Counted from the first letter of the stretch, positions 54,390 to 57,122 are shown. The stretch is 64,000 bases of DNA from Puniceicoccales bacterium (GCA_031269795.1 JAISYR010000004.1:2458-66457), one strand, 5' to 3'. Program-made: numbers and translations. Notes: a model not told the origin generated them from the letters alone.

Positions 54390-57122
54390 ATGCCTGATTT
54401 TGATGCTAATAGTGTAGCGGTAGCTGCTGATGGATATGCAATTACACAGGCGGCACGCGACGGAGTGGTCAATCCTTTTTTAGATTTGGAGGAAGCAGAA
54501 GCAAAAAATGCATTATTCTACTTTTTAGAGGGCCACTATGACCAGATTATTTTGGAAAAGATTTTTACCATATTGTATTCTACAGATACCGGTGTACAGT
54601 CACACATATCAGCACAAACAGAAGCCCTAGACGCCGCTCAAAAAGCATACTATGATGCGGCACAAAAGGCTTCCACTCTTCAGATACTGGGGGCCTATGG
54701 GGTAGAAGGCCTAATCACGAATATAGAAACCGCCTATTCCGTAAATGGCGTTGTCCCAACGAAGAATGCTGTTGTTTGTACAACTGCCATTAATGACGCC
54801 TCTGCCGATGCTTTGGCCATTGTCCGCGACCTCTTGATAGCTAATATCACTTTGCCGAATATTCCTGTCGTTGGCGAGCCCGAGCTTACGGCTTTGAGAA
54901 CTCTTGAAGGGCAATTGTATGAGGATCTGGAACCACATATAAGCGCCATAGTGGCGGCATTGGGTACCTATGAATATGAAAATCAGTTCCAGATACCAGA
55001 TGCCACGCTGAATGATCTCGAGACAGCCTTGAATGGGACTGACGACTCCATAGCGACACATAAATCGAGTATACAAAGTGCCATCGCTGCCTATAAGGAA
55101 GATAAAACCAGTGGTAATTTGGAAGATCTCCAAACGGCATTAAGTGTTGCAACGAATGATGGCACTTTCACAAGTGTAGTCGCGACTAATAGCGCTCTTG
55201 GTTTAGCGATAGATGATGTGAATGGCGCCATAGCTAGAATAGTTCCCTATTACACAGCAATCAATTCCATTAACGCCTTCATTGCAAACGCTCCAAATCA
55301 GAACAGAGGTGATTTTTTAAATCTCCAAGCGGCATTAAATACCATCTCGAATACCACGGATTATCCTGAATTTACAAATATTACTACAACCTCGATGGCG
55401 GATTTAGCGTCTGTCGTCAATGCAATGACTGGAATACAGTACTTTAGAGTCATGGATCCAGACGAGGATTTTTTTCCAAATGTCAAAACTTATTATTTAG
55501 ATGGTATTAAAGATATTAGTTTTCTCAGTCCAGAAACCGTATCGTCAATTAATGCGATGGCAACACTTATAGATACATCCATAGCGTTGAACAGTTGGTT
55601 ATACTCTGCTAGGAGTTCCATTGAAAACGGTAATGTGAATGATATTGCGGACAACCTTCAGAGAGTAAGTGCAACAGCAGCAGCAATCCAGAACATACCG
55701 GGAATGAATTATGATTACACAGCTTTAGTGACCGCGATTAATACCGCACTAAACACAACGGAAAACATACGTTCCATTTTGAATACATTGACTCTTGCCA
55801 TTACTGCTTACAGTGCCAGGGCGTCAGGAGCCACACCATCCCTAACAGGAGACCCATCCGTTTTAACCCTTTTTGATGCTGTTGATGATGCCCTTGAGGA
55901 CTTTTCCGATGAAATACGGGCAAACTTCAGCACTTCCACGATTACGGGTTACGAAACCCGTGTCACCGATTGCAATGCAAAGATTGATAGTGTATCTGAC
56001 TTTAAAGACTTTTACAGAAAAATAGATTCACTCATTGCAATTTACCAGAACACTGAAGTCAAGGAGCTGCTGACTAGTCCTACTCCAAGAGATACATACT
56101 ATACCTCTGCAACTGGAGCTGTACTCAAAACGCCCCTAATCTTTACTGATTTGAAAGCTTTGAGTGCTGCTTTGCAGACACCTCTGAAGACTATATCAGA
56201 TGATATTGAACCAAAAAGAAAGGCCCTAGAGGAAGCGCAGGCAAAATTAAATGAGGTAGCACCAGGTTTTGACCCCAACGCAAGTCTTGATGACCTGCTC
56301 AACCTGTGCATGATGGCATCGACGCCGCAACCGCAAGCGAATGATACCTATAGGCTAGTAACCGGTATTCAGAGAACGCTCGATGCCAACGGTAACTATA
56401 CCTACGCACTTGTATATGGTGGCTCAACGATAACCAAAGCCCAGTATGATGCAAGTTTTTCAAAGGAGGATGGCTACACGCACTACTCATTGCCGTATCT
56501 TGCCCTTGCCATCATGTATGAAAAGGTCGGCATACAGCAAATGGTACTGGTGGAACAGCTAAAACAGGTGGAAAAAATCAACGAGGCAATTCGGGAAAAT
56601 AATAATGCCCTTAAAGCCCTGAGTGTAATGTATGATCGTGTATATTCACAGGCAACTACGGAATCACATTCATCAAGCTGGTATTTTCTACGCGGTAGTA
56701 CCCTCGAAGAAGCAACCGGCGTTTCAATACCTCAGTTAATCGATTATTTGACGACCACTCAGATTGGAATTCCAGGTGCAGACAACATATGCGGTCTATA
56801 CAGGACGCATGGTAATTATCCAGAGGGCGCATTTCAGGTCGCAATTAATCGCTACGACAGAGATGGAGATGCTCCCACCACAAGCTCAGAAGGATGCCAT
56901 ACACAAAACGTAGATGTCCATGAACAGGCAACACTGACACAGATATCAAACAAACAGGATGCGGTTAGGATATACGGCGACCAATTGTCTACGGATTCCC
57001 AGCTGATGACTACGAAAATGTCGCAGTATATGCAAAACTCCAACGCCTGTGTCAGCGCGTGTACCCAGGTCGTAAAATCCGTGGGAGATTACCTTAAAAC
57101 GGTCGTTTCCAACATTCGATAA
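54390..57122 (+). CDS. 910-aa hypothetical protein; candidate giant T3SS needle-tip/filament (SctA-slot) protein
   Basis: Strong SD (AGGAGGGGAAGGTT-ATG). No signal peptide. Ala/Thr/Asn-rich helical modules. The C-terminus MSQYMQNSNACVSACTQVVKSVGDYLKTVVSNIR resembles needle/tip C-terminal helices. Lies immediately upstream of the SycD-like chaperone. Confidence 0.7.
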   Translation: MPDFDANSVAVAADGYAITQAARDGVVNPFLDLEEAEAKNALFYFLEGHYDQIILEKIFTILYSTDTGVQSHISAQTEALDAAQKAYYDAAQKASTLQILGAYGVEGLITNIETAYSVNGVVPTKNAVVCTTAINDASADALAIVRDLLIANITLPNIPVVGEPELTALRTLEGQLYEDLEPHISAIVAALGTYEYENQFQIPDATLNDLETALNGTDDSIATHKSSIQSAIAAYKEDKTSGNLEDLQTALSVATNDGTFTSVVATNSALGLAIDDVNGAIARIVPYYTAINSINAFIANAPNQNRGDFLNLQAALNTISNTTDYPEFTNITTTSMADLASVVNAMTGIQYFRVMDPDEDFFPNVKTYYLDGIKDISFLSPETVSSINAMATLIDTSIALNSWLYSARSSIENGNVNDIADNLQRVSATAAAIQNIPGMNYDYTALVTAINTALNTTENIRSILNTLTLAITAYSARASGATPSLTGDPSVLTLFDAVDDALEDFSDEIRANFSTSTITGYETRVTDCNAKIDSVSDFKDFYRKIDSLIAIYQNTEVKELLTSPTPRDTYYTSATGAVLKTPLIFTDLKALSAALQTPLKTISDDIEPKRKALEEAQAKLNEVAPGFDPNASLDDLLNLCMMASTPQPQANDTYRLVTGIQRTLDANGNYTYALVYGGSTITKAQYDASFSKEDGYTHYSLPYLALAIMYEKVGIQQMVLVEQLKQVEKINEAIRENNNALKALSVMYDRVYSQATTESHSSSWYFLRGSTLEEATGVSIPQLIDYLTTTQIGIPGADNICGLYRTHGNYPEGAFQVAINRYDRDGDAPTTSSEGCHTQNVDVHEQATLTQISNKQDAVRIYGDQLSTDSQLMTTKMSQYMQNSNACVSACTQVVKSVGDYLKTVVSNIR

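Follow-up and report, generated by a model that had tools for sequence, protein, structure and literature searches.

A length-variable Puniceicoccales protein family in the tip/filament slot of a type III secretion translocator operon

A 64,000-nucleotide stretch of a Puniceicoccales metagenome-assembled genome (MAG; GCA_031269795.1, JAISYR010000004.1:2458-66457), hereafter the window, carries a five-gene translocator operon of a system for type III secretion (T3SS), the second gene of which encodes a protein of 910 amino acids (aa). The family to which this protein belongs occupies the tip/filament slot of this conserved operon in every genome examined, and the protein itself is, on balance, probably a SctA-class distal axial component, i.e., the needle tip or an extension filament, of a Puniceicoccales injectisome, representing a new family. 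Several features argue for this reading: the invariant operon position, which matches the orders lcrG-lcrV-lcrH-yopB-yopD and sseB-sscA-sseC-sseD of other injectisomes; a C-terminus that resembles needle subunits in register; a minimal family member, P0061, which comprises N-terminal module and core and has, with 344 aa, the size of a tip protein; and the arrangement of conserved termini around a hypervariable middle, in the manner of axial proteins. In addition, the predicted layout of the core (a long helix, an alpha/beta part and a long C-terminal helix, with conserved faces on the helices) corresponds to what has been described for IpaD (PMC4539596).

The protein family and its operon

The product of the gene is identical to the database entry 'MAG: hypothetical protein LBS22_00790 [Puniceicoccales bacterium]'. 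The order Puniceicoccales falls within Opitutia, phylum Verrucomicrobiota, in the Planctomycetes-Verrucomicrobia-Chlamydiae (PVC) group. The protein matches no Pfam, NCBIfam or PHROG family and no sequence in the PDB, and a word-indexed homologue search with the full 910 aa returned nothing beyond the protein itself. The family surfaced with an exhaustive HMMER search: a phmmer run over 1.84 billion cluster representatives returned 58 proteins (E<=1e-3), 27 of which lie at E<=1e-30, and the existence of homologues down to E=3e-162 (the best non-self match) implies that the gene is real. All organism-named representatives among the 58 belong to Puniceicoccales or Opitutales. The same holds for the 11 family loci found in 185,579 species-representative genomes, which were scanned with a 13-sequence alignment of the closer family members: all lie in Puniceicoccales/Opitutales MAGs, nine of which have isolate names of the form 'code_binN', which we take to indicate termite-gut MAGs. 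In neither search was a family match labelled with another taxon, chlamydial or otherwise; the chlamydial framing offered by a preliminary description, made from the sequence alone, has to be given up for what is a Puniceicoccales MAG.

In the phmmer set, family members range from 308 to 2984 aa, and the sources searched give them no functional annotation beyond 'hypothetical protein' and two evidently automatic labels. Judging from these searches, the 910-aa protein is a member of a previously undescribed family that is specific to Puniceicoccales/Opitutales. In the literature, no paper joining Puniceicoccales with type III secretion was found, and of the few papers that mention both tip proteins and Verrucomicrobia none describes a verrucomicrobial tip protein. 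Among the relatives of this Puniceicoccales lineage are endosymbionts of termite-gut protists, the 'Nucleococcus cluster' (PMC8204192).

The gene order of the operon (a homologue of the 213-aa upstream protein, the family member, a chaperone, a protein with two transmembrane segments (2-TM protein) and a second translocator-like protein) recurs at every locus where it could be assessed, on 12 further distinct contigs, L001 and L014 lying on one contig, as do L003 and L011. In all, 13 contigs were examined for chaperone and translocator neighbours (12 with close members, one with a divergent member), and every one of them was positive. A class II chaperone gene stands immediately 3' of the family member at all loci examined, and, in the window as in its relatives, this chaperone gene and two translocator-like genes adjoin the family member. 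By phmmer, a homologue of the 213-aa protein lies directly upstream of the family member at L001/L014, L003/L011, L004, L005, L006, L008, L009, L010, L012 and L013. L002 is a partial exception, where the 166-aa gene at this position has a similar basic tail but is not detected as a homologue. The genes that flank the operon differ among distant lineages, and the five genes therefore travel as a unit.

Within the window, the five genes (Table 1) are separated by gaps of 35, 19, 26 and 44 nt, in this order, and a good Shine-Dalgarno-like site, GGGAGGGG, precedes the ATG at 53713, where the first gene begins; promoter-like sites are not more numerous than expected by chance. The 213-aa product of the first gene has no Pfam, NCBIfam or PHROG match. 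Upstream partner genes of 166-213 aa share a basic end, which reads KRAVKKMKV at L001 (5011..5619) and KKAVRRVRL at L002 (1309..1809), and do not look like the typical small acidic T3SS chaperone. The 910-aa protein, in which Ala, Thr, Leu and Ser are abundant, is acidic, and no hydrophobic segment in it is of membrane-spanning length. The translocator chaperone that the preliminary description had placed directly downstream is indeed present: the product of the third gene matches TIGR02552 with E=8.8e-22 (77.3 bits, profile positions 4-133 of 136) and PF07720 (TPR_3) with 23 bits, above the cut-off of 20.7. By sequence, it is clearly related to LcrH/SycD, but stays under the equivalog cut-off of 104.8 bits. 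The 382-aa translocator-like protein has hydrophobic segments at ~aa 153-204 and 247-305 and ends in ...KEYNDTKRMVAQNIRS, and the 510-aa protein, which ends in ...IYNIKTSIAHNI, matches the SseD model weakly and under its cut-off (E=3.9e-6). In the remainder of the window, housekeeping genes but no T3SS apparatus genes were found.

Table 1. Coordinates of the operon genes in the window and of the segments of the 910-aa open reading frame (ORF); TPR, tetratricopeptide repeat; pLDDT, predicted local distance difference test
Feature	Position	Strand	Description
Upstream partner gene, 213 aa, operon gene 1	53713..54354	+	Charged; basic C-terminal tail ...KRVVKRMKI
910-aa ORF in the tip/filament slot	54390..57122	+	ATG start; C-terminus ...LSTDSQLMTTKMSQYMQNSNACVSACTQVVKSVGDYLKTVVSNIR
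Conserved N-terminal module, aa 1-62	54390..54575	+	Motif GYxITQ..V.NPFLDL..A....FYFLEG.YDQI
Hypervariable all-helical insert, aa 63-619	54576..56246	+	No counterpart in the shortest members
Start of conserved core, aa 620-700	56247..56489	+	Motif LLNLCMMASTP; beta-hairpin aa 654-675; short helices
Long conserved helix 1, aa 701-755	56490..56654	+	LPYLALAIMYEKVGIQQMVLVEQLKQVEKINEAIRENN...; core residues 81-135, pLDDT 83-95
Variable alpha/beta insert, aa 756-840	56655..56909	+	YxRDGD motif; in core numbering, E143-148, H149-156, H160-169, E194-199
Long C-terminal helix, aa 841-910	56910..57119	+	Core-model helix 223-289, 67 residues (~aa 843-909)
LcrH/SycD-class (class II, TPR) translocator chaperone, 175 aa	57142..57669	+	TIGR02552, PF07720
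Hydrophobic translocator-like protein, 382 aa	57696..58844	+	SctE/YopB-like by architecture; two membrane-type segments
Second translocator-like protein, 510 aa	58889..60421	+	Coiled-coil rich, SctB/SseD-like; NCBIfam translocon_SseD

Variants of the operon were found at several loci. At L001 (5650..9615), the family gene is tandemly duplicated, with copies of 874 aa and 344 aa, the latter without the whole helical insert; between them lies a chimeric ORF of 86 aa, a fusion of the chaperone's N-terminal half with the basic tail of the 202-aa gene upstream. L002 also carries two family members in tandem. Directly behind a divergent member of 2003 aa, which shares only the last ~60 aa with the family, come a TPR chaperone-like gene and then genes for proteins of 536 aa, with a hydrophobic segment, and of 289 aa. 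P0055, P0057 and P0058, giant proteins of 2003-2984 aa from Puniceicoccales, have only these last ~60 residues in common with the family, in a shared tail of the form ...TKMQRMMQRCNETTSLATQMLKSxGDVWKQxxxNIR; for P0055 (L015, 109..6120), whose context was the one examined, the gene immediately precedes a TPR chaperone-like gene and a pair of translocator-like ones. Length varies by lineage in the second translocator-like protein as well, the homologue at L006 (9886..12846) measuring ~985 aa versus 510 aa in the window. At L003 (7999..12676, MAG Kf353_bin47), the operon is split into many short ORFs: the upstream gene is in three pieces, the family gene in at least three, and chaperone and translocator are truncated, which suggests pseudogenisation or assembly errors.

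The contig of L003 also carries sctS-sctT-sctU, 5-8 kb upstream of the operon, between grpE/dnaJ and rsmA; these genes stand apart from the operon and have no adjoining sctR, and the T3SS genes therefore appear scattered. Their products exceed the cut-offs of the NCBIfam non-flagellar models (SctS, 103.4>76.5; SctT, 193.9>163.05; SctU, 401.4>358 bits), and the lineage therefore has a genuine injectisome. A flagellar origin of these export genes was rejected, given that the injectisome models pass their cut-offs while the flagellar models stay below their own. Non-flagellar T3SSs in Verrucomicrobia have been reported earlier, with which the L003 genes agree (PMC3459982).

Domain architecture and the C-terminal helix

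The 344-aa paralogue P0061 aligns to aa 9-62 of the window protein (57% identity) and then straight to aa 620-910 (61% identity). The 910-aa protein is therefore composed of an N-terminal module, an insert of ~557 aa and a core of ~290 aa (Table 1). The N-terminal module, with 49% mean identity across homologues over aa 1-50, is a candidate secretion signal or chaperone-binding region, and in the full-length AlphaFold2 model it contains short helices only, none longer than 13 residues. The insert is far more variable: its mean identity to the window protein is 14-28% over most of its length and 32% over its first 50 residues. AlphaFold2 predicts helices throughout the insert, mostly with a pLDDT of 80-95. 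The full-length model as a whole reaches a pLDDT of 78.9 and a predicted template modelling score (pTM) of 0.46, and its residues 52-623 form a near-continuous series of helices at high local confidence.

The preliminary description had regarded the N-terminal ~650 aa as loosely recurring, Ala/Thr/Asn-rich helical modules. The structure prediction bears out the helical character, the composition of the N-terminal ~620 aa (Ala 11.6%, Thr 10.0%, Asn 6.6%) agrees with it, and internal repeats are present, if weak: the best off-diagonal score is 26.9 bits, compared to 19.2 +/- 1.7 (maximum 25.4) in shuffled sequences, so that none of 100 shuffles reaches it. However, the large region is an insert and not a simple N-terminal domain, because the conserved N-terminal module of ~60 aa and the core flank it on both sides.

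For the core, an AlphaFold2 run with a 38-sequence alignment (mean pLDDT 81.2, pTM 0.67) predicts a short helix (H13-23, core numbering), a beta-hairpin (E34-44/E50-61), a helix of 55 residues, a mixed alpha/beta insert and a C-terminal helix of 67 residues. Both long helices had been anticipated: the C-terminal one, which the preliminary description had read at the end of the ORF at 54390..57122, corresponds to an AlphaFold2 helix at ~aa 841-909, and the second, LVEQLKQVEKINEAIRENNNALKALSVMYDRVY, lies at ~aa 720-752, within the AlphaFold2 helix 701-755 and ~115-145 residues before the C-terminal segment quoted there. Conservation is highest on these helices, with 73% mean identity across homologues for helix 1 (aa 701-750) and 77% for aa 851-900, whereas the alpha/beta insert between them is partly of low pLDDT and reaches 26-36% (aa 751-850). 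In helix 1, conservation has a periodicity of 3.5 residues (P=0.0005); in the C-terminal helix, both conservation and hydrophobicity follow a 3.6-residue period, the power of which is reached in none of 2000 shuffles. Such heptad-type periodicity implies one conserved face per long helix, as expected for coiled-coil packing.

The hallmark of the family is its C-terminus, NIDVxEQ...YGDxLSTDxQxMTTKMxQYMQ...KSxGDYxKxIxSN[IV]R, and it is here that a likeness to needle subunits was detected. When the 38 core sequences were scanned singly against Pfam, 16 matched PF09392 (the MxiH/YscF/PrgI needles), while every other family was matched by at most three, among the matches listed (25 of 48 families). 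Of C-terminal fragments from 10 diverse members, six match PF09392, always with the end of the protein on the end of the model, the best member scoring 22.4 bits. For profile comparison, a PrgI sequence was verified against PDB 2lpz, and real SctF sequences were then collected. With hhalign, the last 90 residues of the family (54 sequences) align to 19 SctF representatives over 34 columns (score 21.6, P=0.0019), again end to end (query 61-94 of 95, template 53-86 of 86). None of 150 column shuffles reaches this score (mean 10.7, SD 2.3, maximum 20.9), and the reversed alignment scores 12.1; the needle-like C-terminal helix is therefore real but weak. The preliminary description had called this helix needle- or tip-like, which holds insofar as the likeness lies above controls and in register, but it stays below threshold and belongs to a module that is shared with a translocator.

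This second relationship is the stronger one. Over its last 63 residues, the family can be aligned, end to end, to the final 63 of the 2-TM translocator-like protein (hhalign, P=6.5e-6 at a probability of 84.8%), and none of 120 shuffles reaches the score (mean 9.7, maximum 18.5). At the level of sequence, the two C-termini are thus homologous, and more closely related than the family is to needles; upstream of the shared C-terminus, homology between family and translocator was tested for and none was found. The tail of the second translocator-like protein shows a weak relationship to that of the family (P=0.007). Tails similar to that of the family (...RMVAQNIRS, ...KTSIAHNI, ...MIARNITI, ...KIIRNSAI) end the translocator-like proteins in the window (57696..58844 and 58889..60421), at L002 (3540..5629) and at L015 (6615..9105). 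Since both translocator-like proteins have such tails, all three putative secreted proteins of the operon may share a docking or sorting module.

Candidate role at the distal end of the needle and competing explanations

If the 910-aa protein is a distal axial component, its mode of action might be as follows. It would be exported by the T3SS, as it has no Sec signal peptide or transmembrane segment but a conserved N-terminal module. The amphipathic helices at aa 701-755 and 841-909 would then pair as an antiparallel coiled coil, and the needle-like extreme C-terminus (...GDYLKTVVSNIR) could insert, at the needle's distal end, into the helical lattice, in the form of either an oligomeric cap or a polymerising sheath. 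The alpha/beta domain and the helical insert of ~560 aa would project outwards or distally, where the insert, with its lineage-dependent length, might act as a host-facing spacer or adhesive surface. The resulting complex would provide the platform for the two downstream translocators, of which the hydrophobic one would dock by its homologous C-terminal helix, analogous to IpaB, which is proposed to join IpaD at the Shigella tip.

The comparison with known systems shows parallels to several classes of distal proteins. Like IpaD, SipD and BipD, the protein is hydrophilic and lacks a transmembrane segment, and the minimal family member has ~340 aa. The AlphaFold2 prediction resembles IpaD in the order of its elements, in which the N-terminal module is followed by a long helix, a domain of mixed alpha/beta structure and a second long helix at the C-terminus (PMC4539596); the extreme C-terminus, which is critical in IpaD, is the most conserved part of the Puniceicoccales family. 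In a published model, it is by their extreme C-termini that both IpaD and IpaB attach to the needle (PMC4539596), so that the hydrophobic translocator is proposed to dock by its own C-terminus, and here both C-termini are homologous. However, the family differs from IpaD, SipD and BipD in its helical insert of very variable length and in being restricted to Verrucomicrobiota, and ipaD and sipD follow the translocator genes instead of preceding the chaperone.

The gene order, in turn, is that of LcrV, PcrV and AcrV, where a small partner is followed by the tip protein, then by a class II chaperone and finally by the hydrophobic and the second translocator. In LcrV, an internal helix and the C-terminal helix form a central coiled coil. 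Unlike LcrV, to which it has no sequence match, the protein has 910 aa instead of ~326 aa, and the 213-aa upstream protein bears no resemblance to LcrG and is approximately twice its size. As coiled-coil subunits, EspA, SseB and Bsp22 lengthen the needle and bear the translocon. Their genes lie directly upstream of translocators as well (sseB-sscA-sseC-sseD, espA-espD-espB), and the downstream 510-aa protein weakly matches SseD. In contrast, no match to the EspA family exists, and EspA is a protein of ~190 aa without a large insert. To needle subunits (SctF: PrgI, MxiH, YscF; PF09392), the last ~34 residues of the protein align end on end, including the terminal pattern ...KD....I.xN[FI]R, but the alignment takes in only one of the two needle helices and no PxxP turn, at 910 versus ~80 aa and with scores under the gathering threshold.

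Searches with the predicted structures gave an equivocal picture. In Foldseek comparisons with the PDB, the weak top list of the core model (E 0.14-1.6) consists mostly of flagellins, IpaD(122-321) and FlgK/FlgL, interspersed with generic coiled coils such as the V-ATPase stalk and PI3K p85; although non-significant, this list is dominated by T3SS axial proteins, which we count in favour of a SctA-class component. The full-length model had no match at E<=0.001 and retrieved generic helical proteins only (TM-score ~0.07). No enzymatic or phage-related domain or fold was recognised in Pfam, NCBIfam, PHROGs or Foldseek, and matches to contactin-2 FnIII, a trypanosome surface glycoprotein, ATG17 and YlbO (E >= 0.001) were treated as noise. 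The preliminary description had held that homologues never linked to T3SS genes, or an unrelated enzymatic fold, would speak against its proposal; homologues clearly lie at T3SS translocator operons, no enzymatic fold was found, and none of the outcomes it had named as fatal was encountered.

Several observations weigh against the SctA-class interpretation. At E<=1, the window protein matches none of the LcrV, IpaD/SipD and EspA families in Pfam and NCBIfam, and the tip and filament families are also absent for the 38 members, among the matches listed (25 of 48 families). Neither the single sequence, nor the last 195 aa, nor the family profile matches tip, filament or flagellar PDB chains at E<=10. 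The fold comparison with tip, filament and needle structures, which the preliminary description had suggested, brought no significant match: nothing in the PDB resembles the core model at E<=0.001 (best E=0.14), and IpaD and SipD, without detectable sequence homology to the family, are not significant (E 0.14-1.5, TM-score 0.16-0.25, and 0.18-0.25 for IpaD). The idea of a tip or EspA-like filament protein with a large novel domain thus retains the operon slot and the core layout, but lacks a significant match to the LcrV, IpaD/SipD, EspA or PrgI families. The likeness to needles is confined to a single needle helix, the C-terminal one: the C-terminal 83 aa of the window protein score 15.5 bits (E=0.019) against PF09392, short of the gathering threshold of 29.4, the database-calibrated hhalign probability is just 14%, and in the full-length model the C-terminal helix is of low confidence (pLDDT 41-68). 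Moreover, the shared C-terminal module may be a general docking or sorting module that is not specific to tip proteins; being common to the translocator, it could be a signal for secretion hierarchy, sorting or chaperone binding and not for needle docking. For a tip protein, the 2000-3000 aa of some members would be without precedent, and all family data derive from uncultured MAGs. Finally, no SctF gene was found, which means little, because only genome fragments were searched with a hidden Markov model (HMM) of the needles of the SPI-1 (Salmonella pathogenicity island 1) and Ysc types only, a weak test.

Some of these points would fit the main alternative explanation, namely that the protein is a secreted effector, an adhesin or an accessory component of the translocon that is co-regulated with the translocators, its C-terminal helix being an export, sorting or chaperone signal and its variable region the cargo. 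We consider this doubtful, yet deserving of serious consideration. A C-terminal module that recurs in the hydrophobic translocator and, as a weak match, in the other translocator-like protein is what a shared signal of 'middle' substrates would look like, and TPR-like chaperones such as PscG and YscG grip the C-terminal helix of their substrate; at L001, the chaperone's N-terminal half was duplicated along with the family member. A hypervariable central region would be expected of host-interacting cargo, and lengths of 2000-3000 aa are more typically those of an effector or adhesin than those of a tip protein. However, conservation peaks on the two long helices and not on the putative cargo, and the 344-aa paralogue has no insert at all, so that the core must carry the function. 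In addition, the C-terminus aligns in register with needle C-termini, the position directly before the class II chaperone is the tip/filament slot in the Ysc and SPI-2 systems, and no enzymatic or known effector domain was found.

An unlikely possibility is that the 910-aa protein is itself the polymerising subunit of a needle or filament, SctF- or EspA-like and with large surface domains like those of giant flagellins, instead of a discrete cap; to some extent this overlaps with a SctA-class component, which covers both tip and filament. Flagellins and hook-associated proteins have the same layout of conserved termini and a hypervariable, length-variable centre, and flagellins lead the weak Foldseek list (Caulobacter FljK, probability 0.91, TM-score 0.36-0.39). 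Yet these matches are not significant (E >= 0.14), neither a Pfam flagellin domain nor a significant D0/D1 fold match was found, and the gene stands in the translocator operon of an injectisome. The conserved N-terminal module is short, with helices of up to 13 residues, whereas flagellins have long N-terminal D0/D1 helices. The needle-like C-terminus would suit a polymer subunit, but the N-terminal helix and PxxP turn of needles are unmatched by hhalign, and 910 aa contrast with the ~70-90 aa of a helix-turn-helix needle protein. That no separate SctF gene was seen in the genome fragments searched would also agree with this explanation, although, given the fragments and the SPI-1/Ysc-type HMM on which it is based, this absence carries little weight.

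A T3SS regulator, either a gatekeeper (SctW: YopN/MxiC/SepL) or a ruler of needle length (SctP), the genes of which lie near those for tip or translocator proteins in some systems, is very unlikely: while the mostly helical prediction resembles the helical bundles of gatekeepers, sepL and bopN lie upstream of espA-espD-espB and bsp22, respectively, and variable length could point to a ruler, no match to HrpJ, TyeA or T3S4 was found for the window protein or, among the matches listed (25 of 48 families), for the 38 members, a needle-like C-terminus homologous to that of a translocator is not a feature of gatekeepers or rulers, and, for a ruler matched to a single needle type, lengths spread too widely inside one order (308-2984 aa).

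Surroundings of the operon and significance

A gene for transfer-messenger RNA (tmRNA; 53130..53507, +; tag peptide GNNVINVDFSNGVNKAAA) ends ~200 bp before the first gene of the operon. The same adjacency recurs in the close relatives L005, L006, L008 and L014 and is missing in the distant L002, L009, L012 and L013. A genomic island at the tmRNA gene was considered and rejected, as the adjacency is limited to close relatives and no integrase is present among the scanned ORFs; the G+C content of the operon region (0.436-0.444, compared to 0.39-0.455 elsewhere in the window) was likewise counted against an island. The arrangement looks like local synteny, not like the insertion site of an island.

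Elsewhere in the window, in an ORF of 502 aa without family assignment (27277..28785, -), a unit of ~55 aa is repeated almost perfectly in tandem (...KIAQMHRAAKGKAGKFVEKFKH.KTSLASAISNFRRQFPK.ISQTA...), and hydrophobic stretches are present as well; the adjoining ORF of 378 aa (26108..27244, -) has no match at all, and both could be lineage-specific secreted or membrane proteins. A tRNA-Arg(CCG) gene (37616..37690) overlaps the TTG that had been listed mechanically as the start of the YidC ORF (37618..39726); YidC must therefore begin further downstream. The gene for a small signal recognition particle (SRP) RNA lies at 23698..23795.

In injectisomes, tip and filament proteins sense the host and nucleate the translocon, and several of them are targets of vaccines and antibodies. 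They evolve too fast to be traced between T3SS families, and Abby and Rocha noted that tip proteins cannot be aligned between families (PMC3459982). New here are a family that would fill a known functional slot, its unusual, length-variable insert and a module that is shared with a translocator; together they flag an apparently undescribed injectisome in presumably termite-gut Puniceicoccales. If the SctA-class assignment is true, the solution of a long-helix hairpin plus a needle-like C-terminus would recur in a distant phylum, and the family would provide a natural series in which the distal part varies approximately ten-fold in length. Moreover, sequence homology would then back the notion that tip protein and hydrophobic translocator dock on the needle via equivalent C-terminal helices. 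More tentatively, it is conceivable that in these Verrucomicrobiota, which possibly live as symbionts of protists in termite guts, the distal end of the injectisome consists of modular subunits of a class unrecognised so far. A needle-like docking helix, which the pore-forming translocator has as well, would be joined in them to a length-tuned helical rod (308-2984 aa for the family's proteins), its reach fitted to the host surface. Such a subunit might represent a fourth class of tip/filament proteins beside LcrV, IpaD and EspA, and the first to be described outside the Proteobacteria.

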